From Patescibacteria group bacterium (lineage in GTDB: Bacteria; Patescibacteriota; Microgenomatia; UBA10105; UBA927), in contig DATKGN010000004.1 in NCBI GenBank assembly GCA_035510735.1, forward strand, positions 243,810 through 307,809: DNA of 64,000 nucleotides. The letters run 5' to 3'. Below, piece by piece: positions 47,776-62,370 of the stretch. The translations under genes and the position numbers were made by a program. The stretch's first letter is position 1. Each line of letters starts with the position of its first letter. The notes below the pieces were generated by a model. The model was not told the DNA's origin. It saw nothing but the letters and a program-made list of their open reading frames with translations, and searched no databases.

Positions 47776-48414
47776 ATGACATTCTTATTCATTCACGGTA
47801 CTTTTGAATCACCAAATAATGCTTGGTTTCCGTGGTTGAAAAACGAGTTACAAAAGATGGGCCATATTGTGATAGCGCCGCAATTTCCGGTGGACAAATG
47901 GTCGGAGATATCCAAGCAGCCTGTGTCCGAATACGCTCCTACGCAACAATTAGGTGCATGGTTTGATGTTTTCGAAAAGATTCGTAACACTATTAAACCG
48001 GATACAAAATTATGTATTGTTGCCCATTCATTAGGCCCCGTGTTTACGTTACTCGTCGCTCAAAAATATTCTATGCAATTAGCGAATGCATATTTTATTG
48101 CGCCGTTTTTTGAGGTGTACGGGAAATCCGACTATATTGAAAAGGCAAACGATTCGTTTTATCATCAACAATTCGATTTTCCCAAACTACGGAGGCTTAT
48201 TCCAAATTCAACTGTTCTGTACAGTGATAACGATCCATATATTGATAAACTTAAATCTGTAGAATTTCGGGAAAAATTGAAGAGCAAGATTGTAAGGTTA
48301 CACGGGTTAGGTCATATGGGATCGGAATCGGGCATGAAGGACTTTCCCCAATTACTCGATCTGATCAAACAAGATAGTAATATAATAACCCGACATGACA
48401 AAAGTATCCGTTGA
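47776..48414 (+). CDS. YdeN/RBBP9-like serine hydrolase, paralogue 4
   Basis: LFIHGTFESPNNAWFPWLKNEL and IVAHSLGP. Confidence 0.7.
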   Translation: MTFLFIHGTFESPNNAWFPWLKNELQKMGHIVIAPQFPVDKWSEISKQPVSEYAPTQQLGAWFDVFEKIRNTIKPDTKLCIVAHSLGPVFTLLVAQKYSMQLANAYFIAPFFEVYGKSDYIEKANDSFYHQQFDFPKLRRLIPNSTVLYSDNDPYIDKLKSVEFREKLKSKIVRLHGLGHMGSESGMKDFPQLLDLIKQDSNIITRHDKSIR

Positions 48415-51400
48415 TGAAGGCTCATTGAACGAACAGCAATTGAAAGCCGTGAAGCACGGCTCCGGGCCTCTTATGATTATCGCCGGGGCCGGGACTGGGA
48501 AAACAACCGTCGTTACGGAGCGGATAAAATATCTTATTGCAAAGGAAATCGTAAAACCCGAGGAAATTTTAGCCCTCACCTTCACCGAAAAAGCGAGCCG
48601 CGAAATGGAAGAACGGGTCGATAAAGCATTGCCGTACGGGGTCACGCAGATGTGGATTTCAACGTTTCATGCGTTTTGCGACAGGATATTACGGAATGAA
48701 GCCATTAATGTAGGCATTGACCCCGGGTACACACTCATGACAGAGGCGGAGACAATCATGTTTTTCCGGAAGAATATTTTCCGATTCGATCTTAACTATT
48801 TCCGTCCGCTCGGAAACCCGACGAAATTTATCGCCGGTATGGTCGGACATTTCAGCAGGTTAAAAGATGAGGATGTGACGCCGACGGAATATCTCAAATG
48901 GGCAAAATCCCCCGGAGGTAAAAATCAAAATTCCAAATCCAAAATAAATGCAAAATCCAAAATTCAAAATGGAGAAAACGATCAGAATGAAGGAGAAAAA
49001 TATTTTGAACTTGCAAACGCTTATAGAACATATGAAGAGCTTAAAGTGAAGGAAGGGGTTTGTGACTATTCTGATTTAATCAGTCAAGTACTACTTATTT
49101 TCCGGACGAGACCGAAAATTCTCGCTAACTATCAGAATCAATTTAAATATGTTCTCATTGATGAATTCCAGGATACGAATTTCGCGCAGAATCAGTTGGC
49201 CATTCTCCTTGCGGGTCGGAGAAAGAATATTACGGTTGTCGGCGATGATGACCAGGCGATTTACCGCTGGCGAGGTGCGGCCGTCTCCAACATGATTCAA
49301 TTTCGGGCGTCATTTCCGAAAGCAACCATTGTCGTGTTGACTTCAAATTATCGGTCGACAAAAGAAATACTTGACCGTTCATACGACCTGGTCCAACACA
49401 ATAATCCCGACCGGCTGGAAGTCGCGGAAAAAATTGAAAAGAAATTGGAGAGCGCGCGAAGAATAAACGGGGAGAAGATTCAGGTTTTGTTCGCCGATCG
49501 CGTGGAAAACGAAGCGGATGCCGTCGCGCGGAAAATTGTTGATGTCATGAAACAACATAACGAATATTCATACTCGGACATTGCTCTGTTAGTACGTGCG
49601 AATAATCACGCGGATCCGTTTGCGAGAGCTTTTGCACGGTCGGGAATACCCTATCAATTTTTAGGGCCGGGACAACTGTACCGGCAACCGGAAGTGAAGG
49701 ATCTTATCGCATATCTCAAGGTTCTTTACAACTTTGAAGACAGTGTCGCGATGTACCGGCTCTTAACCATGGATTGGCTGAACTTGCCTCCGCGAGATGT
49801 AGCGTCACTGTCAAATTACGCAAAACGGTATGGAATTTCCATTTTTGAAGCATGCGAAGCGCTATCTGGGAACGCGCCGCAAAATTTTCTTGATCCGCTG
49901 CTCCCTTCGGCTCGCGTTGCTCGCTCAGGGCAAGCGCAACAAGATATTGCTAAGTTTAACCTGAGCGAAGCCGAAGGTCTCGATAAGCGATCTTCGAAAA
50001 TTTCGCCTCGCGTTCCCACGCGTATTCCTAGGCCTTTTGTAACTGATGAGACGCAAAAAAAGGTTATACAACTGGTTGCCATGATCCATAAACACCTGGG
50101 ATTAATTAAAAGAGAAACAGCGGGGCAGATTCTCTATTATTTTCTTGAAGACACAGGCTTACTCAAACGGCTTGCGAATTACGAATCGGTTAAGGATGAG
50201 AAAATTGCGCTTAATATTTCCAAATTTTTCAACAAATTGAAGACGTATGAAGTTGAGCACGATGATGCAAGCGTTTTTACCGTCGTCGACTGGATCGATT
50301 TATCCATGACACTCGGAGAATCACCGATGTCAACGGACGCCGACTGGAGCGATAATAATGCCGTGACACTTATGACGGTTCATTCCGCAAAAGGGCTCGA
50401 ATTTCCTGTGGTTTTCCTCGTTAATTTAGTGTCACAACGGTTTCCGACGACACAGCGGAAGGAACAGATTCCTATTCCCGAAGCGCTCATTAAGGAAGTA
50501 TTGCCGACCGGGGATTTTCACACACAGGAAGAGCGGCGGCTTTTTTACGTCGGAATGACCCGCGCACGCGATCTCTTATTTTTAACCGCGGCAAAATTTT
50601 ATGGTGAGGGGAAACGGGAGAAAAAGTTATCGCCGTTTATCGCGGAATCGCTGGGGACTGGTTTTGAGGATTCTATCGTCATCGATGAAGGGCGTAATAC
50701 AAAGCAGTTATCTTTTTTGGACTGGGCGAAACCGGAAGAACCTACAAAAAAAATGGTAGGTCACCCGATTTCGTATCTTTCTTATTCACAGCTTGCAACG
50801 TTTGAAACGTGCCCGCTTCAATATAAATATCGGTATATTATAAAAATTCCGATTCCGCCGTCTGCAGCTTTGTCGTTCGGTGATACTATTCACAAAGTCG
50901 TGCGCGCATTTTATGAACTTGTAAAAAATGGAGAGCATCCGACCCTGGAAACATTATTTCAGCTGCTTGATGAACATTGGGTGTCAGTCGGATTCGGTAA
51001 TAAGGCGTATGAAGCAAAGCTGAAGGCACACGGTAAAGAGTTATTGGAGGGGTTTTTCAAAAAGGGATATGATCCGAAAACTATTCCGATAGCTCTTGAG
51101 GAACCGTTTAAGATAAAAATTACCCCAGAGCTTACGCTCGGGGGAAGAATTGATCGGATTGATAAACATGAAGACGGCACGATAGAAATCATTGATTATA
51201 AAACCGGTCAAGCGCCAAAGAGCCGGGATGCGGCACGCGATGAACAGTTGACAGTGTACGCGCTTAGCGCTGCACAAGGTGGCATCTATAAAGACCCGCC
51301 AAAAAAGGTCATCGTTTCGTTTTATTTTTTTGAAGGCCAGGAAAAATTGTCCGCGACAAGAAATCAGGAGGAGTTGGCCCTTGCCCGTAAAGAGATTTTT

Positions 51401-51499
51401 GAAAAAGCAAAGCTCATGGAACAAAGTGATTTTGCCCCGACGCCCGGAAGACACTGTGATTTCTGCGAATTTCGTCTCATCTGTGAAGCGTGGAATTAA
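48395..51499 (+). CDS. UvrD-family helicase fused to C-terminal PD-(D/E)xK RecB-like nuclease (AddA-like)
   Basis: Walker A IIAGAGTGKTT, helicase motifs (VLIDEFQDTN, VGDDDQAIYRWRGA). C-terminal GRIDRIDKHEDGTIEIIDYKTG nuclease motif and CDFCEF...C cluster. Confidence 0.8.
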   Translation: MTKVSVDEGSLNEQQLKAVKHGSGPLMIIAGAGTGKTTVVTERIKYLIAKEIVKPEEILALTFTEKASREMEERVDKALPYGVTQMWISTFHAFCDRILRNEAINVGIDPGYTLMTEAETIMFFRKNIFRFDLNYFRPLGNPTKFIAGMVGHFSRLKDEDVTPTEYLKWAKSPGGKNQNSKSKINAKSKIQNGENDQNEGEKYFELANAYRTYEELKVKEGVCDYSDLISQVLLIFRTRPKILANYQNQFKYVLIDEFQDTNFAQNQLAILLAGRRKNITVVGDDDQAIYRWRGAAVSNMIQFRASFPKATIVVLTSNYRSTKEILDRSYDLVQHNNPDRLEVAEKIEKKLESARRINGEKIQVLFADRVENEADAVARKIVDVMKQHNEYSYSDIALLVRANNHADPFARAFARSGIPYQFLGPGQLYRQPEVKDLIAYLKVLYNFEDSVAMYRLLTMDWLNLPPRDVASLSNYAKRYGISIFEACEALSGNAPQNFLDPLLPSARVARSGQAQQDIAKFNLSEAEGLDKRSSKISPRVPTRIPRPFVTDETQKKVIQLVAMIHKHLGLIKRETAGQILYYFLEDTGLLKRLANYESVKDEKIALNISKFFNKLKTYEVEHDDASVFTVVDWIDLSMTLGESPMSTDADWSDNNAVTLMTVHSAKGLEFPVVFLVNLVSQRFPTTQRKEQIPIPEALIKEVLPTGDFHTQEERRLFYVGMTRARDLLFLTAAKFYGEGKREKKLSPFIAESLGTGFEDSIVIDEGRNTKQLSFLDWAKPEEPTKKMVGHPISYLSYSQLATFETCPLQYKYRYIIKIPIPPSAALSFGDTIHKVVRAFYELVKNGEHPTLETLFQLLDEHWVSVGFGNKAYEAKLKAHGKELLEGFFKKGYDPKTIPIALEEPFKIKITPELTLGGRIDRIDKHEDGTIEIIDYKTGQAPKSRDAARDEQLTVYALSAAQGGIYKDPPKKVIVSFYFFEGQEKLSATRNQEELALARKEIFEKAKLMEQSDFAPTPGRHCDFCEFRLICEAWN

Positions 51500-52374: not shown

Positions 52375-53368
52375 GTAAATAGGCCCACCTTATCGTATCG
52401 GCCGCAGTGTAGAGGTGGTAGAGAAGCGGATTGACAACAAGATCAAAGGATCCCGCAAATTCGATAAGCTGTGGTTTATATCCTTCTTTAAAACGATGGA
52501 ATCCGTACCATGGGTCCTTTGTGTCGGGATTGGGTCCCATTGCACCCCAGAGATCAAATTGTTTGAAACCTTCTTTTTTTGCCCATTTGGCGATCTCCCA
52601 TAACATGAGGTTCGGTGCCATGATATCGCGGTTTATCCGGGAGGATGTTCCATAGGGATAGTAGACCGTATCGTTCCACAAAAAAACGATCCATGCGGTG
52701 ACAATAGTTCCCTCATACGTTGCCGTAAATAATTTGGCGATATTTTTCTCTTTAAACAATCGCCACATCGTGGTATGGTAATGCCGGTTATGGGCATAAA
52801 AACCCTGGCGTTTCGTCGTCTCTTCAGAGAGAGTTACGTATGCGTTAAACGCTTTTTCGCTTGAATCCTCGCGGATTACGACGCCGTGTTTTTGGGCAAC
52901 TCGGATGTTGTATCGGGTTTTCGGATGCATGGCCTTGAGCAAGTCATCCTCTGATTTTGTCAGATCAAGCACGAATGTGTATTTGGTGAATAATGGATGG
53001 TGTGACTTACGGAAGAGTGCCGATAGGGGTATTTTGGCATCCGCAGCCTGTATATTTGGTTCAAGTTGGATATAAATTGCATTTTTTTCGCGACCCAAAT
53101 TACCCAGCGCCTCAATCATATCAGAAACCGGTTCCGGGCCTTTCGGGAAATAGCCAATGGTATAGGCGACATGCGGCACTTTATGGAACGATATTTGCCA
53201 TCCCTCAATGAGCTTATTATTGTTGAATACGCCGAGCCGCGCGATATCGATATTCATGCTCTTACGGAATTCGCCCCACTCCCAGGATTGGAGAGGATGT
53301 GCGACTAGCGCATCCCATTTTCCTCTCTCGGAATCATCGACGGGACGGATTGATCTGTCGGCCTTCAT
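52355..53368 (-). CDS. FemAB-family peptidoglycan peptide-bridge aminoacyltransferase, paralogue 2
   Basis: FemAB-like ...YYPYGTSS...FDLWGA...YGFHRFKEGYKP. Tandem with paralogue 1. Confidence 0.65.
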   Translation of the reverse strand: MKADRSIRPVDDSERGKWDALVAHPLQSWEWGEFRKSMNIDIARLGVFNNNKLIEGWQISFHKVPHVAYTIGYFPKGPEPVSDMIEALGNLGREKNAIYIQLEPNIQAADAKIPLSALFRKSHHPLFTKYTFVLDLTKSEDDLLKAMHPKTRYNIRVAQKHGVVIREDSSEKAFNAYVTLSEETTKRQGFYAHNRHYHTTMWRLFKEKNIAKLFTATYEGTIVTAWIVFLWNDTVYYPYGTSSRINRDIMAPNLMLWEIAKWAKKEGFKQFDLWGAMGPNPDTKDPWYGFHRFKEGYKPQLIEFAGSFDLVVNPLLYHLYTAADTIRWAYLHVQAKI

Positions 53369-53614
53369 GATGTATATTATCTATCTTTTATTCCTATGAT
53401 ACAATGGGATTAAATGAAAAGAAGAGCAAAAAAAAGAGCCTACCAACAGGCTTCTTCTGAGGCTATTGCGTGGCTCCCGATCGACAGCAGGTTGTTCCCA
53501 TTTTTTTCATTTACCCATGTCAGGGGGGTTGCCCGGGTTTTTCTGATTTTGGAAATGATTCTCTCTGTCGGCGTTGTCGTTGGCACGCTGGCACTCGTTA
53601 TCTTGCGGTTTACC

Positions 53615-53815
53615 CTAAAGTAAGAGGTCGTCATCCTGAAACCCCCGGTCACTATTGAGTGATACATTTAATTCCATGACATGGGCGGGAATGTCAGCGA
53701 TGAATCGTGAAATCATATTTTGTGTCCGCGTGCCGAAAAACAGCCCCCCCTGTTGGCGTACATTAGGTAGAGTTTTTCTTTTTGTCCTTGTGCTTTTTCA
53801 CTGTATTTCAAAGTA
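53615..53815 (-). pseudogene. Remnant of a UvrD-family helicase C-terminus (frameshifted stub)
   Basis: Minus-strand translation gives ...AQGQKEKLYLMYANRGG/LFFGTRTQNMISRFIADIPAHVMELNVSLNSDRGFQDDDLLL*. This is close to the C-terminus of the intact helicase at 56619-58487 (KLYLTYANRRLFFGTRTQNMISRFIADIPAHVLELNVSLNADRGFNDDDMLL*). One frameshift falls in a G7 run. No helicase core lies upstream. Confidence 0.6.
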
Positions 53816-53872
53816 AAGATTCCTGTTTTTTTGCATATTTGTATAAAAGCGGTACAATGTGCCCAAAGAGTA

Positions 53873-55380
53873 TGGCAACAGATGGATATTTACTTGGGTA
53901 TGATTTAGGCAGCTCGTTTATCAAAGCCTCGCTTATTGATAGTAAAACCGGCATCCTCATCGCAAAAGCTGCATCCACTGATAAAGAATTAACGATAGAT
54001 TCTCCGCACCCCGGTTGGGCCGAACAACATCCTGACATGTGGTGGAAAAACATTGTTCAGGCGACATTAAAAATTAAAATGCAGGTAGGGAATAAATTAA
54101 AAGACGTGAGAGCGATTGGTATAACGTATCAGATGCATGGATTGGTTCTCGTCGATAAACATATGAACGTGCTGTATCCATCAATTATTTGGTGTGACAG
54201 CCGCGCTGTAGCACTTGGCGACAAAGCATTTAAAAAAATCGGCCAAAAAACATGCCTTACCCATTTCCTAAATTCTCCAGGTAACTTTACTGCTTCAAAA
54301 CTCGCATGGGTGAAACAGAATTTACCTCACATATATAAGAGGATATATAAAATCATGCTTCCGGGGGACTATATTGCATATAAGTTTACCGGAGAGGTAA
54401 AGACAACCGTCACAGGGCTTTCGGAGGGAATTCTTTGGGATTATCAGAAGCAGGATATCGCGGATCTGGTACTTAACTATTACGGCATCCCGAAAGATTT
54501 TATTCCGGACATCGTGCCGACATTTTCGATACAGGGCAGACTCACAGCGGAAGCGGCAGAAATGACGGGCTTGCCGGTCGGAGTACCGGTTTCTTATCGC
54601 GCCGGGGATCAGCCAAACAATGCACTCTCCCTGAATGTTCTTAATCCCGGAGAAATTGCAGCAACCACCGGGACATCGGGAGTAGTCTATGGCGTCGGCG
54701 ATAAGCCTATTTTCGATAAAAAGTCCCGTGTAAATGTATTTGTCCATGTAAATCATACGAAAAAGACACCCCGTTACGGTACACTTTTGTGTTTAAACGG
54801 TGCCGGAATTCTCAATTCGTGGTCGAAAAATAAGTTATTTACGCTCAGTAAAGAGGGTCTCAGTTACGACGAAATGAATCATATGGCTCTCCTCGCGCCA
54901 ATCGGTTCTGATGGACTTTGTATTTTACCATTTGGGAACGGGGCGGAACGTACTCTCGAAAACAAAAACATCGGCGCATCGATTCATGGGCTTAATTTAA
55001 CAATTCACACCAGAAGACATATAGCCAGAGCAATTCAGGAAGGCGTTGTTTTTGCGATGAATTATGGACTTCAGATTATGAAAGACATGGGACTTTCAAT
55101 AAAAGTTATTAGAACCGGTTATGCCAATATGTTCCTAAGTCCACTGTTTGCTCAGGCCTTTTCAACTCTCACGAACTCGGTGATTCAGCTCTACAATACC
55201 GACGGTGCTCAGGGTGCCGCGCGTGGAGCCGGTATCGGAGCAGGTATATACCCGTCCGCTCGAGAAGCATTTAAACATTTAGAAATTATGAAAACAATAA
55301 AGCCAAATTTTTCCCAACGGGGCGCATATCTGGAGGCATATGCGCGATGGGAGACATGTTTAAAGAAAAGTTTACTATAA
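53873..55380 (+). CDS. xylB: FGGY-family carbohydrate kinase, xylulokinase-like
   Basis: GYDLGSSFIKASLID...DSPHPGWAEQHPDMWW FGGY N-domain signature. Adjacent to xylose isomerase. Start chosen at ATG 53873; the track ORF begins at 53782. Confidence 0.75.
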
Positions 55381-55403
55381 AAAATTTATTATGAAAGGAC
55401 AAT

Positions 55404-56609
55404 ATGAATAAACGAAAACTTTCCATGCCCTTTTGGTGTGTAGCAAATTCTGTAGGTGATCCATTCGGAGCGCCAGTAATGGACAGTGTAACTCCTTTAG
55501 AAGTCTGTGATATTTTATGCGATGCCAAATCGAAGGGGTTAATCAACTTTACCTCAACTCATGACGATAACCTTGTGGATTGGGATCCGACAAAACCGGA
55601 AGATGATCTCGACAAAAACAGCGTTACTTATAAGACTCTTCGGACAATCAAAAAGAAGATGGATGCTGTGGGGCTTAAGATGAAAATGGTAACCTGCAGC
55701 CTGCACGGCGATCTGATTTTTCGAAACGGAGGACTCACGAATCCGGATCCGGAGATTAGAGCACTGGCTGCTCAAAAAGTCATGCGAACTATCCGGATCG
55801 GAAATTTTTTCGGTGCGGAATATCTGACGTATTGGGTGGCACGTGACGGATTTGAGTGTCAGTTCGCCATACCTTGGGATAAATGTTACACGTATATCGA
55901 ACAGGGCCTTAACCTGGCTACGCGGTATATAAAGGAAAATAATTTTTCCATTAAAGGCGGTACGATTGAGAGTAAGCCGAACGAACCGCGCGGAGAAATG
56001 TTTCTTGCCACCACAGGCCATGCGCTCGCGCTTGTCAGCCGTCTGGAAGATCCTGATTTTTGGGGAGTAAATCCGGAAATACTCCAGCATGAAGGAATGA
56101 CGAATTTGTCGGCAATTAATGCAATTGCTATGGCAGTTCACGCAAAGAAACTTCCCTTTCTGCATCTGGGAAATCAGAAACCCGGACAGTTTGATAATGA
56201 CAATCCTACCATGACGGGTATGGACGGAGTGAAGGAAATTATCGGAGTGTTCTGGATGTTACGGAAGCTTAATTGGGGCGGACACATTGAGTTTGATAAT
56301 CATGTACTACGAACCGACGCGACGCCCGGCAAAAAGAACGCCATTGCCGTACGGAAAGCATTTATCAAACACAATGTGGAAAGCTATAGATTGGCTGAGA
56401 AGAAAGCCGATGAGCTTGCCGGCAACAAGACGCTCGATAAACTCTATGAGCGGATTTGCGGTAAAAAATCCGCATTGACAGCAGCCTTAGATCGGTATGA
56501 TTTTAAGGCTATCAATAAAGCAAAAATCTCGTATGACAAATTGAATACGACTCCGGTGAACATTGCTGAACTTGATTACGTCGTCAACAAAGCGCTCTTA
56601 GGTGAGTAA
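55404..56609 (+). CDS. xylA: Xylose isomerase
   Basis: IESKPNEPRGEMFLATTGHALALVSRLEDPDFWGVNPE matches the XylA EPKPNEPRG...TVGHALAF...NPE region. A WVARDGFE block resembles the FWGGREG motif. Confidence 0.8.
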   Translation: MNKRKLSMPFWCVANSVGDPFGAPVMDSVTPLEVCDILCDAKSKGLINFTSTHDDNLVDWDPTKPEDDLDKNSVTYKTLRTIKKKMDAVGLKMKMVTCSLHGDLIFRNGGLTNPDPEIRALAAQKVMRTIRIGNFFGAEYLTYWVARDGFECQFAIPWDKCYTYIEQGLNLATRYIKENNFSIKGGTIESKPNEPRGEMFLATTGHALALVSRLEDPDFWGVNPEILQHEGMTNLSAINAIAMAVHAKKLPFLHLGNQKPGQFDNDNPTMTGMDGVKEIIGVFWMLRKLNWGGHIEFDNHVLRTDATPGKKNAIAVRKAFIKHNVESYRLAEKKADELAGNKTLDKLYERICGKKSALTAALDRYDFKAINKAKISYDKLNTTPVNIAELDYVVNKALLGE

Positions 56610-56618
56610 AAAGGCAGG

Positions 56619-58487
56619 TCATAGTAACATGTCATCGTCATTGAAGCCACGATCGGCATTCAGCGATACGTTGAGCTCTAATACGTGGGCCGGAATATCC
56701 GCGATAAACCGGGAAATCATATTTTGCGTCCGCGTACCGAAAAATAATCTGCGGTTTGCATACGTAAGGTATAATTTTTCTTTCGCGCGGGTTAAGCCGA
56801 CGTAACACAGGCGCCGTTCTTCCTCGAGTTCCTCCTTATCCATGAGCGTCCGGCTGTGGGGGAATAGCCCCTCTTCCATGCCGACGATAAACACGATATC
56901 AAATTCAAGGCCCTTGGCTGCATGGAGCGTCATAAGCGTGACGGCGTCGCGGTTTTCTTCGCGCAGGCGGACGTTTTTGGGTTCATACTCCTGTTCGACG
57001 AGTGCGACGGTTTCCAAAAAATCCCGTAACACAGGAAATTCAGTTGCGACCGAACGGAGTTCCTTAATATTCTCGAGTCTGTATGCTTCTTCCTCGACAT
57101 TGGCGTCATACAGCTCCAGATATTGTGTCGCTGCCAAAATTTGATCAAGAAGTTCAAGCGTTGTGAGGTTGACGAGCTTGTTATCGTGTGCAATTGTTTC
57201 AAAAAACTCGAGGAATTTTGTGAGCCGTCCTTTTCCCAATTTTTCAATACGGTTGTAGGAAACAGAATCCTTGGGATTTGCGACACAGCGAAGATAGGCT
57301 AATACGTCCTTGATTTCCTTTCGTTCATAAAACCGGGTGCCTCCGACCAGGTGGTAGGGAATTCCTGCATGTAAAAATGCCTCCTCCAACACGCGGGACT
57401 GCGCATTGGTTCTGTATAAAACGGCAAAATCGTGAAACGGCCGACCTCCGGCCTGCAAAATCGTCTGGACGAGAAATGACGCTTCATCGTGCTCGGTGCG
57501 CGCTTCATAGAGTGTGATCTGTTCGCCGCCGGTTTTTTCCGTCCAGAGTTTTAATATTGTGTGCGACGTATTTTTGGATATAACGCCATGGGCGGCATCA
57601 AGAATTTTTTGTGTTGAGCGGTAGTTTTGTTCCAGGTGAAATTCATGAGATTGTGGGTAGTCGCGTTTAAAGTTCGTAATATTGCGGAAATCAGCCCCGC
57701 GCCAGCGGTAAATACTCTGCGAGGCATCACCGACAACGCAGATGTTGTGATAGCGGCCTGATAAATATTTTGTTAACAGATATTGCGCCTTGTTCGTATC
57801 CTGGTATTCGTCCACCATAACGTAATGATATTTTTCCTGATAATATCCCAATACTTCTTTGTTTTTTTGAAAGAGCTCAACGGTTTTTGACAGGAGGTCA
57901 TCAAAATCCAATGCTTCGTTATTCTTTAACAATTTTTGATAGGCCAGATAGATTTGCGCAACGGCCTCCTGGAAATATCCGCGCGCGTACTGCGGATATT
58001 CGGTGGCTGATATAAGCTCATTTTTTGCTTCACCGATGGTGTGAAGGACCGCATTGGGATTAAAACTTTTTGTGGATAAATCGAGCGACTTCATCACCTC
58101 TTTGATTGCATCAACCTGATCCTGTTCATCGTAAATAGCAAAATTCGGCGCGATACCGATGCGCACTCCATCGCGGCGCAGAATCTTGACGCACAATGCA
58201 TGGAACGTTCCGGCAAAAGGCATATCAGTCGATCTTCCGAGGAGTTTCCGGATCCTGTCTTTCATCTCGTTGGCCGCTTTATTGGTAAACGTGACCATGA
58301 GGATTTCATGAGGGGACACGTGTTTTTCGCCGATTAAATAGGCGACTTTATAGGTTAAGACTCTCGTCTTTCCGCTCCCCGCCCCCGCGAGGATGAGAAT
58401 AGGCCCATCGCAAAGTTTCACAGCTTCAATTTGGTCCTTGTTTAAGTCGTTGAGTAAGCTCTTTGCCATAGAGTATAATCTTATCAT
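56619..58487 (-). CDS. uvrD: ATP-dependent DNA helicase, UvrD/PcrA/Rep family
   Basis: Walker A ILAGAGSGKTRVLT, motifs VMVDEYQDTN and VGDASQSIYRWRGA, C-terminal GLTRAKEKLYLTYA. Confidence 0.88.
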   Translation of the reverse strand: MIRLYSMAKSLLNDLNKDQIEAVKLCDGPILILAGAGSGKTRVLTYKVAYLIGEKHVSPHEILMVTFTNKAANEMKDRIRKLLGRSTDMPFAGTFHALCVKILRRDGVRIGIAPNFAIYDEQDQVDAIKEVMKSLDLSTKSFNPNAVLHTIGEAKNELISATEYPQYARGYFQEAVAQIYLAYQKLLKNNEALDFDDLLSKTVELFQKNKEVLGYYQEKYHYVMVDEYQDTNKAQYLLTKYLSGRYHNICVVGDASQSIYRWRGADFRNITNFKRDYPQSHEFHLEQNYRSTQKILDAAHGVISKNTSHTILKLWTEKTGGEQITLYEARTEHDEASFLVQTILQAGGRPFHDFAVLYRTNAQSRVLEEAFLHAGIPYHLVGGTRFYERKEIKDVLAYLRCVANPKDSVSYNRIEKLGKGRLTKFLEFFETIAHDNKLVNLTTLELLDQILAATQYLELYDANVEEEAYRLENIKELRSVATEFPVLRDFLETVALVEQEYEPKNVRLREENRDAVTLMTLHAAKGLEFDIVFIVGMEEGLFPHSRTLMDKEELEEERRLCYVGLTRAKEKLYLTYANRRLFFGTRTQNMISRFIADIPAHVLELNVSLNADRGFNDDDMLL

Positions 58488-59174
58488 ATGAAAAATTTAT
58501 TTATTGCCGGTAATTGGAAGAGTAATAAAACGAACGCAGAATCACAAGTGTGGGTCAAAGATATCGCCAGCAAATTGAGTGATATATCGGCGGATTTGTC
58601 AAAAATTCCCGTCGTCGTATGCGTCCCATTTACGTCTCTCTCTGTTATTAATTATGCGTTGAAAGCAGGTAATGTACCCCTTGCGCTCGGTACTCAAAAC
58701 GTCTCAAAGTTCGACGAAGGTGCGTATACGGGGGAAGTTACCGCCAAGATGGTTAAAGAAGTCGCCGATTGGGTTATCATCGGACACTCCGAGCGGCGGA
58801 AATATTTTAACGAAACCGATGAAGATTTAGCGATCAAAGCGCAAAAGGCAAAGGGAACTGGTCTCCGCGTGATTTTCTGTGTTCCGGATGATAAAACACC
58901 GGTCCCCACTGGGGTTGACGTCGTCGGATATGAGCCCGTCTGGGCAATAGGTACCGGTAAAACCGATTCACCGGAAAATGCTGCCGCGGTTGTGACTTCC
59001 ATAAAGGCAAAAACGAAGGTCGCTACGGTGATCTATGGTGGGAGTGTGACCGGCGATAACGTGGACACATTTGTTTCCCAATCTGCAATTGACGGAGTGC
59101 TTCCCGGCGGTGCAAGTCTGGATCCTGAAAAATTTTCACATCTCATTCACGCAGCATTGGCCGCAACGAAGTGA
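58488..59174 (+). CDS. tpiA: Triose-phosphate isomerase
   Basis: AGNWKSNKT, IGHSERR and YEPVWAIGTGKT motifs. Confidence 0.9.
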   Translation: MKNLFIAGNWKSNKTNAESQVWVKDIASKLSDISADLSKIPVVVCVPFTSLSVINYALKAGNVPLALGTQNVSKFDEGAYTGEVTAKMVKEVADWVIIGHSERRKYFNETDEDLAIKAQKAKGTGLRVIFCVPDDKTPVPTGVDVVGYEPVWAIGTGKTDSPENAAAVVTSIKAKTKVATVIYGGSVTGDNVDTFVSQSAIDGVLPGGASLDPEKFSHLIHAALAATK

Positions 59175-60328: not shown

Positions 60329-61003
60329 TTAGAGCGCCAATCCGATAAGAACGAGCATGAAGGCGCCGCCTACGACGGAAGCACCCAGGACTGAAGGACC
60401 GGAACCGGTTACCGGCGTTGTAGGAGTCGAAGCGGCCGCTACTTCACAGATACAGTTTGTCTTGTCCGTACAACTCGGGTTACGGCATGACCCTGAGATA
60501 CACACGAGTCCTGAACTACAATCCGAATTGAGCGAACAACCGCTGTTGCACGAAGAGAGAACCGGTGTCGGCGTTGGTGTTGCTGTTGCCGAGACACAGG
60601 TACAGCTTGATTGATCGGTACAGCTTGGGTTTCGGCATGAACTGCCTGAGCAGACTAATCCGCTTGAACAATCCGCATTGACGGTACAGGAGTTGTTGCA
60701 TCCGGCTAAAGGCGTCGGTGTCGGTGTATTGGTGGGCGTTTCGCTCGGTGTACCGGTGGGCGTTGGGGTATCGGTTGGTCCGGGAGTGCCCGTCGGAGTA
60801 CTTGTCGGTGTTGCAATGGCAAATGATAGGGTACACGCGGGTTCTGCCGCTTTTGGCGTGATTTGCGGGACGTTCGGCGCTATAGGAGAGGTTTTTGTCA
60901 ATTGCTGGCTCGTCACAAACGTAAGGACGGCAAGTCCGATCGTAATGATACCGACCAAGAATACGTACCAATTATTTTTCAAATGTTTCATAGTTAATGC
61001 CAT
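60329..61003 (-). CDS. Cell-surface Thr/Pro-rich protein with duplicated Cys-rich module, N- and C-terminal hydrophobic segments
   Basis: Two consecutive copies of a roughly 38 aa module (CNNSCTVNADCSSGLVCSGSSCRNPSCTDQSSCTCV and CNSGCSLNSDCSSGLVCISGSCRNPSCTDKTNCICEV). TP-rich linker. C-terminal LVLIGLAL tail. Confidence 0.5.
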   Translation of the reverse strand: MALTMKHLKNNWYVFLVGIITIGLAVLTFVTSQQLTKTSPIAPNVPQITPKAAEPACTLSFAIATPTSTPTGTPGPTDTPTPTGTPSETPTNTPTPTPLAGCNNSCTVNADCSSGLVCSGSSCRNPSCTDQSSCTCVSATATPTPTPVLSSCNSGCSLNSDCSSGLVCISGSCRNPSCTDKTNCICEVAAASTPTTPVTGSGPSVLGASVVGGAFMLVLIGLAL

Positions 61004-62370
61004 TGACCGTCAGACCCAAAAATTTCCGATTCGACGGTAAAGTTCGTCGTACCTACCGGAATCGTATAATCAAGTGTATATTCGCCTGCGCTATTTTGTA
61101 TTGCCGTTTCGGTAAACGCGCCGCCGTTGACACGGATATGCGCCTTTGTTGCATTGCCACCCGCAACTGCAATCGTCACGTCATCGCCCGGTTGAAGAGC
61201 AGCGAGCCCTGCCGCATCCAGCACGGTAGTTCCTTTATAGACCTTAATATTCGTACATTGAGAAGCAGGAGTAGGAGTGGGTGTGCTACCCCCTCCGCCG
61301 CCACCCCCTCCGCCGCCACCCCCTCCGCCGCCACCGTTAGAGGTCGTCACTGTACAACCAATGGTATTTTGACCGCCACTCGAGGCACATGTCGTATAGT
61401 GCCAATTAGCACAAGCGTCTGCATTTTGTCCCTGATCGCATCCTACTCCGGCTGGCACCCATGTTTGGCCAGGCCCGGGTGTAGGAATTACACCAGTCTT
61501 TGGATCTGGGGTTGGGAATACGATCGGTGGTAATTTACCGCTTGCATCAAGGTTTGCCTGAGGGTTAGAGACAACTTCAACCCCTGGATTAGCTATGGCA
61601 AATTTAAGTGCTGCTGTTTCTGTATCCGGCAATGCAATAATGAACCGCTGACCGTTTGAAATATAGGTGCCGGCGATCTGTACAGGATTAGAGCCTGTGG
61701 TAGCCTGCCACTGCTCTTTCGTGGCAACTGTAGTGGTACCGCTTATCGTTCCGTAAGTATTTACTGGTGCAGTTGCCGCCGCGGCCGCCGGAGCTGCTGT
61801 TGCCGGAGCTGCTGTTGCTGCTGCCGCAGCCTGCTGAGCGTTATAGTTATCATTTTTCGCCTCCTGGTTTGCGTTAATGTGTGCACAATATCCGTTTGAT
61901 TTATCACATGCAAAACCAAAAAGGGTAAGGGTATTTTTTATACCAATGACTGCAACGGGCAGAGTAACGAGCATAAACAAGAGAAGCGTGATAACCCCCA
62001 CGCGGGATTTCTTTTTTTTGATCGTCTCATGCGGCGGAGTTACCGGTTCTGCCGGCGGACTTTGCTTCGGATCCGAAGGCTTTGCTATTTTTATTTCCTC
62101 CTCAGGTGGAGGGACGATAAGAGAATCTGAAGGAGGCGACGCCATAAAGGGAGAGCCCGAAAGCGGTGTAGGCGTTGGAGGATCCTGCGTGTGGCTTGGG
62201 GTGGCAGAATCCGGCAGTGTTTGCGTCGGTTGTCCGGCAGGTGATGCACTTAAGGGAGAATTGGTCGACATCGGGTCTGGTGGCGGAGGCGCGACCGACG
62301 CCGGCGCAGATCCCTGCGAACCTGCTTTACTACTTGTATCTGCTTGTGCTGTGTCTAAAATGTCTGCCAT
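60994..62370 (-). CDS. Surface/secreted protein with Pro-rich N-terminus, TM helix, poly-Ala/Thr and poly-Gly low-complexity tracts
   Basis: G17 run encoded by three 15 bp tandem repeats (CCCCTCCGCCGCCAC x3, 61289-61333). AAAAATAAPATAAPAAAAATAP encoded by repeated gccggagctgctgtt units. Confidence 0.5.
   Translation of the reverse strand: MADILDTAQADTSSKAGSQGSAPASVAPPPPDPMSTNSPLSASPAGQPTQTLPDSATPSHTQDPPTPTPLSGSPFMASPPSDSLIVPPPEEEIKIAKPSDPKQSPPAEPVTPPHETIKKKKSRVGVITLLLFMLVTLPVAVIGIKNTLTLFGFACDKSNGYCAHINANQEAKNDNYNAQQAAAAATAAPATAAPAAAAATAPVNTYGTISGTTTVATKEQWQATTGSNPVQIAGTYISNGQRFIIALPDTETAALKFAIANPGVEVVSNPQANLDASGKLPPIVFPTPDPKTGVIPTPGPGQTWVPAGVGCDQGQNADACANWHYTTCASSGGQNTIGCTVTTSNGGGGGGGGGGGGGGGGSTPTPTPASQCTNIKVYKGTTVLDAAGLAALQPGDDVTIAVAGGNATKAHIRVNGGAFTETAIQNSAGEYTLDYTIPVGTTNFTVESEIFGSDGQWH

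Follow-up and report, generated by a model that had tools for sequence, protein, structure and literature searches.

A truncated pcrA 3′ end beside a xylB-xylA gene pair in a Patescibacteria genome: a putative recombination scar between two alleles of one site

The analysis concerns a 64,000-nt stretch of a Patescibacteria group bacterium (assembly GCA_035510735.1, contig DATKGN010000004.1, positions 243,810 to 307,809), which is called the window in the following. In this window a xylulokinase-like gene (xylB) and a xylose isomerase-like gene (xylA) lie between the intact helicase gene pcrA and a second, truncated copy of the pcrA 3′ end, which is called the stub. Judged by its sequence, the stub (53615-53781) is a gene-fragment pseudogene of pcrA, as it is homologous to only a part of the gene, carries disabling lesions, and is not conserved in relatives. 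It is best read as a recombination scar where two alleles of one chromosomal site, from related Gottesmanbacteria lineages, are joined, with the gene pair (xylBA) having been imported into a lineage in which the site was empty, and this reading is held with slightly better than even confidence. The central features are the following.

53615..53781, minus strand: pcrA 3′-end stub, 54 codons plus stop codon; a putative non-functional relic of the pcrA end of the xylBA-empty allele.

53744..53750, minus strand: run of seven G residues (G7) with a +2 nt frameshift; the substitution R12G is adjacent and T7M is near.

53782..53816, plus strand: R1, the residual 3′ end of a second small open reading frame (ORF), encoding "VLVLFHCISK" and the stop, of the occupied-site type; its left edge at 53781/53782 is the putative illegitimate junction.

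56619..56783, minus strand: the functional pcrA 3′ end, of which the stub is a second copy; presumably brought in along with xylBA.

56784..56800: breakpoint in ancestry within pcrA; max-chi2 places it at 56793, 10 nt from the repeat boundary at 56783.

Along the plus strand, the order is small ORF, stub (reverse), R1, xylB promoter, xylB, xylA, and pcrA (reverse). An earlier note on this DNA had read the minus strand from 53615 to 53815 as the C-terminus of a UvrD-family helicase including its stop codon. The homology and the stop codon (53617-53615) were verified, but the pcrA part already ends at 53781, and the bases 53782-53816 belong to the small-ORF remnant. In a local alignment the minus-strand sequence 53781-53619 paired with 56783-56623 of the intact pcrA 3′ end, and a repeat search recovered the same pair as two blocks, i.e., 53619-53740 / 56623-56744 (D1, 75%) and 53752-53781 / 56754-56783 (D2, 80%). 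The spacings of the two blocks, 3004 and 3002 nt, reveal a 2-nt indel between the copies, and the direct duplication comprises 165-167 nt. The nucleotide identity over the 54 aligned codons is 72.8%, and 48/54 residues (89%) are the same, which agrees with the earlier estimate of 85-90% protein identity and a more diverged DNA. The nucleotide alignment and the comparison of synonymous and nonsynonymous differences that had been proposed in the earlier note were performed, and the similarity persisted at the nucleotide level. The 44 nucleotide differences are distributed over codon positions 1/2/3 as 9/2/33; the proportion of synonymous differences (pS) is 0.90, i.e., saturated, and that of nonsynonymous differences (pN) is 0.095. 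A BLASTP comparison of the stub translation with the intact PcrA yielded E = 2e-32, far beyond chance, and the longest identical run common to both copies has a length of 14 nt. The stub begins right after helicase motif VI, with "KEKLYL" following on "...TRA". The helicase core is missing upstream of it, where R1 and the xylB promoter are found instead. The frameshift in the G7 run and the missing core had both been recognized correctly before, as had the position of xylB and xylA between the stub and the intact copy.

The lesions of the stub are few. T7M and R12G, which both lie beside the frameshift, were each found in 0/113 family homologs, the other 4/6 amino-acid differences are ordinary family variants, and the remaining family-conserved residues have all been kept. 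In the population variant L127, three of the four single nucleotide polymorphisms (SNPs) over 1930 nt are within the stub, at 53756, 53766, and 53767, and one of them hits an invariant Ala; this concentration fits a relaxed constraint. The stub thus appears barely decayed since its inactivation, with only T7M, R12G, and the indel looking like post-inactivation changes, and the stub itself probably does nothing. No Rfam match (E up to 1) and no tRNA was found in or near it, and the sole terminator-like hairpin in its vicinity, 53452-53437, is at chance level.

Two side observations were made on the distribution of changes and on the opposite strand. All detectable decay, i.e., T7M, R12G, the +2 nt indel, and the L127 SNPs, is located in 53744-53781, the first 38 nt and first 12 codons of the stub. 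In its other 42 codons the family-conserved positions are unchanged, and a 33-codon ORF starting from M22 remains. This clustering at the junction could have been caused by error-prone synthesis there, by chance, or by residual constraint. Antisense ORFs of 67 aa (56602-56805) and 53 aa (53655-53816) on the plus strand cross the two pcrA-end copies; the most likely explanation for them is the stop-free antisense frame, not a coding function.

Most or all of the region 53300-53950 is covered by eight independent assemblies from different samples (Logan, ENA, and JGI). All eight span the stub and the G7 run, and seven of them are 100% identical, while one is 99.5% identical over the covered part. 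Because eight independent assemblies agree, the stub is neither an assembly artefact nor the result of a homopolymer error.

A comparison with relatives, designated by L and P numbers below, indicated that the site exists in two forms. In L001 and L002 (PcrA identities of 78% and 74%) the order of genes is LCP, tpiA / pcrA, femX, femX, and an AddA-like helicase-nuclease gene, without xylA or xylB, and in L129 and L130 pcrA is likewise followed by femX without the gene pair. A tblastn analysis of 80 loci detected no XylA or XylB, and femX followed pcrA in 15 of these, all of them Microgenomates loci. A convergent small ORF was detected between pcrA and femX in L001, L002, L129, and L130, and the overlap of its end with the pcrA stop region in L001 corresponds to that of the window's small ORF with the stop region of the stub. 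The stub and its downstream sequence are colinear with the pcrA end and the downstream sequence of L001/L002, and therefore the stub represents a pcrA 3′ end in its native, xylBA-free context. The small ORF at 53414-53623 is a real, conserved gene, and in genomes with an empty site it is the gene that natively follows pcrA.

In relatives with PcrA identities of 82-88% (L081/82, L083/84, L086/87, and L120) xylA is convergent with pcrA, and P0134, which is listed apart from these xylA carriers, has a convergent gene in the same place. In contrast, the site is empty in the relatives with PcrA identities of at most 79% (L129, L130, and L001). The stub was absent from all four xylBA relatives that reach the xylB/small-ORF junction (L081, L083, L088, and L109). 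In these four the stop codon of the small ORF is about 50 nt away from the xylB start, with only the promoter-like site between them. The window has about 200 extra bases at this junction, which are made up of the stub and the 35-nt second small-ORF end. It is concluded from these gene orders that the empty allele probably consists of pcrA, small ORF, and femX, and the occupied allele of pcrA, xylA, xylB, small ORF, and femX. A derived position of xylBA between pcrA and its ancestral neighbours is thereby supported.

The two alleles meet at 53781/53782. The stretch 53782-53874, its very first base included, can be aligned with the region that runs from the small-ORF end to the xylB ATG in L081 (79/93), L083 (75/92), and L109 (70/91), and because this homology starts exactly at 53782, the stub is flanked by two small-ORF ends. 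R1 matches the window's true small-ORF end, R2, at only 20/35 positions. The junction is sharp and sets the small-ORF remnant against codon K569 of pcrA. As read from these alignments, the locus is a piece of an empty allele that is fused at 53781/53782 to a piece of an occupied allele. The parental sequences are unsampled, and a microhomology (CAA/AAAG) at the junction is only a guess.

The two pcrA ends also differ in their affinities. When the intact end is compared over 162 nt, its identity is 0.88 with L120 (0.70 at third positions) and 0.86 with L081 (0.69 at third positions), as against 0.73 with the stub. The identities of the stub to every sampled pcrA end range from 0.64 to 0.73, with third positions at 0.33-0.46, i.e., at saturation, and with 0.69-0.70 the ends of the empty-site genomes L129/L130 are no closer to it than other sequences. 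A search for a parent of the stub with its 54-aa protein yielded only four short fragments with 69-76% identity, and among the C-termini of 120 PcrA homologs none was better than 48/54. On the evidence of these identities, the two copies are orthologous ends from different lineages and not each other's closest relatives.

The change in ancestry could be located within pcrA. The divergence between the window and L120 is 25.0% in the pcrA body and 11.3% in the last ~170 nt of pcrA together with the xylA 3′ end. For the breakpoint at 56793, the observed max-chi2 was reached in 0/2000 permutations, and a sliding identity profile agreed. Counted at conserved amino acids, the synonymous codon identity with L120 rises from 0.47 in the body to 0.68 over the last 54 codons (p = 0.0045), and that with L081 from 0.47 to 0.67 (p = 0.007), while it is unchanged with L083 and L086. 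Because the synonymous codon identity also rises, the higher identity of the end is not just a result of protein conservation. In the pcrA breakpoint scan with L001/L002 the synonymous sites were saturated, and the scan was therefore uninformative.

For the gene pair, the synonymous-codon identity was measured as the excess over a codon-usage-matched expectation, which was 0.36-0.41 and equal for xylA/xylB and the flanking genes. The excess was mostly 0.20-0.44 for xylA/xylB (0.09-0.15 in pairs with the xylA of L086) and 0-0.17 for the flanking genes, which points to a common ancestry of the cassette that is younger than that of the backbone. Codon bias was considered as a cause of the third-position identity of xylA/xylB and was rejected, because the matched expectations equal those of the flanking genes.

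Some further observations concern the divergence of this region. XylA and XylB are 84-90% identical at the amino-acid level across L081, L083, L088, and L109, and the neighbouring FemX and LCP proteins only about 60-66%. The near-identical variant L124 (ENA ERZ27247323) has 12 SNPs in 145 nt of xylB (54159-54303) and none elsewhere in 4.6 kb, a pattern suggestive of a short tract that was recombined in from a related strain, and thus of ongoing recombination at the locus. The first ~100 codons of tpiA (58488-58800) have a nucleotide identity of 0.78 to L081 and of 0.50-0.66 to L083/L086, while its second half is equidistant to all three; another recombination boundary nearby is possible.

If xylBA was imported into an empty site, the course of events might have been as follows. 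A lineage with the empty allele would have taken up DNA from a related lineage with an occupied site, and the captured piece would have extended from the last ~165 nt of the donor pcrA through xylA, xylB, and its promoter to the final 35 nt of the small ORF in the donor. The join on the pcrA side would have been homologous, at or within ~10 nt of the start of the repeat, perhaps in the shared AAAGAAAAA. On the far side, the donor small-ORF remnant would have been joined illegitimately to the resident pcrA, 167 nt before its stop codon, at 53781/53782. In this way pcrA would have been kept intact with a donor-derived end, and the resident end would have been displaced downstream, still attached to its native small ORF, where it would now be decaying (+2 nt frameshift, T7M, R12G). 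The structure of the locus, the switch in ancestry, the absence of the stub from relatives, and the absence of site-specific machinery were observed, and several molecular routes might have led there. One is homology-facilitated illegitimate recombination (HFIR) of linear DNA, another a single crossover with a circularised fragment (with [pcrA end ... R1] as the hypothetical intermediate), and a third the repair of a break in pcrA on a donor-DNA template, closed by end joining. This direction of transfer is favoured by the ancestry switch at the repeat boundary, the younger xylBA, and the ongoing recombination, taken together. It is tempting to speculate, albeit tentatively, that the conserved last ~165 nt of pcrA serve as a recurrent landing pad by which the unit of pcrA end, xylA, and xylB spreads among diverged Gottesmanbacteria species of the Candidate Phyla Radiation (CPR), and that the stub is the one case in which the far end was joined illegitimately, leaving a datable scar.

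Several points weigh against an import of xylBA. A transfer in the opposite direction, i.e., of an empty-type segment (pcrA end, small ORF, and further sequence) into an occupied genome, gives the same structure. The window's pcrA body groups with the xylBA carriers (83-88%) and not with the empty-site genomes (74-79%), and with such a carrier-like backbone the favoured direction requires that xylBA spread within the clade, or was lost and regained there. The conserved pcrA end is likely to be a crossover hotspot for any exchange of xylBA alleles, which weakens the significance of the coincident breakpoint. No parental sequence was found among the sampled pcrA ends, none of which exceeds 0.73 to the stub, and femX1 and the small ORF, with their flat identity matrices of 53-74%, evolve too fast to identify the backbone. 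In addition, copies with 73% identity and a longest run of 14 nt are poor substrates for RecA, so that the "homologous" join may have been mediated by microhomology.

The opposite direction is the most serious alternative, although it is considered rather unlikely. In this case xylBA would have been inherited vertically, and a segment comprising the last 167 nt of pcrA, the small ORF, and some of femX1 would have been imported from a xylBA-empty relative, with a homologous anchor in the small ORF or femX1 and an illegitimate join 35 nt inside the resident small ORF. The stub would then be foreign and R1 resident. Apart from the identical final structure, vertical inheritance of xylBA fits the distribution among readable relatives, which are all occupied at a PcrA identity of at least 82% and empty at 79% or less. 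Furthermore, FemX1 and the small ORF of the window are slightly further away from those of L081/L083 (63-64% and 59-62% identity) than the latter are from each other (71% and 74%). However, these distances are inside the clade's own range. The ancestry switch at 56793 would need a second, independent recombination, the imported segment would lack a selectable function and yet be present in 8/8 assemblies, and the lower synonymous divergence of xylA and xylB would be left unexplained. The reverse direction keeps its weight, since the search for a close parent of the stub was without success and the fast evolution of femX1 and the small ORF prevents their placement.

It is very improbable that the stub is as old as the first acquisition of xylBA, by the ancestor of the carrier clade, and was deleted in all other lineages, e.g., by recombination between R1 and R2. 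These are direct repeats that flank the stub, and a deletion between them would produce exactly the structure of the L081 type, but they match at only 20/35 nt, and at least four independent losses would be required. The backbone of the clade is saturated at synonymous sites, and with only ~3 decay events in 167 nt the stub would be too well preserved for such an age unless it had been selected. Moreover, R1 beside xylB already presupposes a donor of the occupied type.

The earlier note had proposed that xylBA was acquired by integration into the helicase 3′ end. The derived position of the gene pair, the cut in pcrA 165-167 nt before its stop codon, and the replacement end agree with this proposal, but a site-specific mechanism was not supported. 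An island that integrated with a replacement end in the style of attL/attR would explain why direct repeats of the gene 3′ end bracket the insert and why the gene has been kept intact. However, no integrase, recombinase, or transposase was found in the 2.8-kb insert, in the overlapping called genes (L121-L128), or in syntenic relatives. The repeats are only 73% identical and have no identical att-like core longer than 14 nt, there is no tRNA, there are no inverted terminal repeats, and the GC content of xylBA does not deviate. Inverted repeats around xylBA were not found beyond matches of chance size, the neighbouring genes have housekeeping functions, and the "element" would end inside a host small ORF and is ordinary chromosome in relatives. 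Such an island is thus highly improbable.

The other earlier proposals, an in situ duplication of the pcrA end or a helicase paralogue that was replaced by xylBA, with the stub remaining under purifying selection thereafter, are refuted by the findings. The third-position bias of 9/2/33 and the 89% amino-acid identity seem to speak for them, yet this biased divergence is expected because both copies were functional pcrA 3′ ends in separate lineages. The intact end is much closer to L081 and L120 (0.86-0.88) than to the stub (0.73), hence the copies are not mutual closest relatives, and the stub is missing from the four relatives that reach the junction. The frameshift, the substitutions T7M and R12G that are unique in the family, and the concentration of SNPs in the stub argue against purifying selection. 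A second helicase was not found at this spot in the synteny comparison, and no genome had a second pcrA-like gene between pcrA and femX; xylBA was absent in empty-site relatives and present at PcrA identities of at least 82%. Apart from pcrA, the neighbourhood has just one UvrD-type gene, the conserved AddA-like gene for a protein of 1034 aa beyond both femX genes, and the stub is the orthologous pcrA end of a xylBA-empty allele joined to its native small ORF. A chimera of co-occurring occupied and empty strains in metagenome assembly has a negligible probability. Related strains do co-occur (L120 and L125 are both from run SRR8676595), but the same junction and the same G7 run were found in 8 assemblies from different samples and three pipelines, and the junction has no shared k-mer able to mislead an assembler.

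The genes and sites around the stub are as follows.

56619..58487, minus strand: intact pcrA/uvrD-type SF1 helicase gene, 622-aa ORF; TIGR01073 pcrA, 1e-228.

53872..55380, plus strand: putative gene for a xylB-like sugar kinase of the FGGY type, 502 aa when counted from the conserved ATG; an identical product has been recorded.

55404..56609, plus strand: putative gene for a class I xylose isomerase (xylA-like) of 401 aa; convergent with pcrA.

53830..53858, plus strand: xylB promoter-like site, TTTGCA-17-TACAAT, from a scan and conservation; outside the stub.

53414..53623, plus strand: small ORF, 69 aa, the C-terminal half being hydrophobic; convergent with pcrA; overlaps the stop region of the stub with its last 9 nt.

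PcrA is recorded elsewhere with a later start and 616 aa (P0121, 100% identical), while there is no exact record of the 622-aa form. Its closest relatives are from Candidatus Gottesmanbacteria and other Microgenomates metagenome-assembled genomes (MAGs). The entire gene content between the two pcrA-end copies, i.e., of the 2.8-kb insert, consists of xylB and xylA. The assignments of both products are predictions, and both proteins score below the NCBIfam equivalog cutoffs: XylB reached 301 bits (E = 1.1e-89) with TIGR01312, the cutoff of which is 380, and XylA 187 bits with TIGR02631, the cutoff of which is 447. XylB is 84-90% identical within the clade. The best solved structures for XylA are class I xylose isomerases (1bxb at 4.8e-45), and its homologs with up to 89% identity are encoded in Gottesmanbacteria-type contigs; the next homologs outside this group, at ~74%, include Spirochaetales MAGs. 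The counterpart of the xylB promoter-like site in relatives is TTGCAT-17-TACAAT, which is conserved among the xylBA carriers. Within 53826-53858, the −35 region of this site is part of a near-palindrome, TTGCATATTTGCAA in relatives, which could be a candidate operator for a regulator.

The small ORF was called as a 69-aa gene in L121-L128, and tblastn detected it in L001, L002, L081, L083, L088, L109, L129, and L130 with 46-62% amino-acid identity. It belongs to no Pfam family, and in several Gottesmanbacteria-type genomes it is situated between pcrA (or xylB) and femX. The AddA-like gene at 48395-51499 encodes the UvrD-like helicase of 1034 aa fused to a C-terminal PD-(D/E)XK / Cas4-like nuclease, with AddA/AddB-like matches; this second gene of the UvrD family is 2 kb away from the stub and unrelated to it. 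The minus strand of 60329-62370 encodes two predicted secreted or membrane proteins with Pro/Thr-rich linkers, one with a duplicated Cys-rich module and the other with a run of 15 glycines. In xylBA relatives a gene for a glycoside hydrolase of the GH39 family, which includes beta-xylosidases, is located ~8 kb upstream of pcrA (L081 1-607, L083 1-663); the corresponding position falls beyond the right end of the window.

For the annotation it follows that 53615-53781 is to be marked as a pseudogene (pcrA fragment) and 53414-53623 as a real small gene, and that the start of xylB is to be set at 53872. The stub would be a neutral scar, and its value would be that of a marker for the entry of a sugar-utilisation pair into a conserved site of an uncultured CPR bacterium without mobile-element machinery; the significance of the event itself would lie in the delivery of the xylose isomerase and xylulokinase pair. 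If the landing-pad idea is true, the locus offers direct sequence evidence for a recent inter-species transfer of a catabolic trait by recombination in CPR bacteria. The case also illustrates that dN/dS between two copies in one genome can mislead, as the signature of selection can be inherited from separate functional orthologs. In the searched literature, Gottesmanbacteria were not mentioned together with xylose.

Events with comparable outcomes have been described in other bacteria. HFIR is known from transformable bacteria (PMC3240628 and PMC5361080, citing de Vries & Wackernagel 2002; Prudhomme et al. 2002; Meier & Wackernagel 2003), and the precedents include integrations that were homologous on one side and illegitimate on the other (PMC3240628, PMC5361080). 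The locus resembles them in having one homologous anchor, the pcrA 3′ end with the switch at ~56793, a second join, at 53781/53782, that would be non-homologous or mediated by microhomology, and no dedicated recombinase. In contrast to classical HFIR, which usually deletes recipient DNA between anchor and joint, 165-167 nt were duplicated here, and the anchor has an identity of only ~73% over the repeat. Genes of the PilN/PilO family were noticed near the locus in syntenic relatives, which is not evidence of competence. In a conjugation study with E. coli, single-crossover integration duplicated 109-950 bp of the homologous locus around the insert (PMC3240628). The direct duplication of 165-167 nt of a homologous segment that flanks xylBA is like the product of such a Campbell-type crossover, except that the circular [pcrA end ... 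R1] and the hybrid make-up expected of the two copies are hypothetical.

Integrase-mediated islands in the 3′ ends of genes or tRNAs share with this locus the direct 3′-end repeats that bracket acquired genes and the intact target gene, but not the integrase, the identical core, the tRNA, or the discrete element ends. A further parallel is provided by the loci for rhs and contact-dependent growth inhibition (CDI) as well as for type VI secretion system (T6SS) effectors, in which displaced "orphan" 3′ ends were found (Jackson et al. 2009, PMC2935791; Kirchberger et al. 2017, PMC5361080) and for which HFIR was proposed as the mechanism of C-terminal displacement (PMC5361080). There, too, an incoming module brings a new 3′ end, and the old end is pushed downstream and persists as a fragment. 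Unlike in these systems, the ends at the pcrA locus are orthologous with 89% protein identity and are not alternative toxin domains, there is neither an immunity gene nor an array, diversifying selection is not in evidence, and the cargo serves sugar catabolism (isomerase and kinase). Taken together, the scar represents an event of a known kind in a CPR genome; what makes it of interest is that its junctions are cleanly resolved and that it hints at a movement of xylBA between Gottesmanbacteria lineages by recombination.

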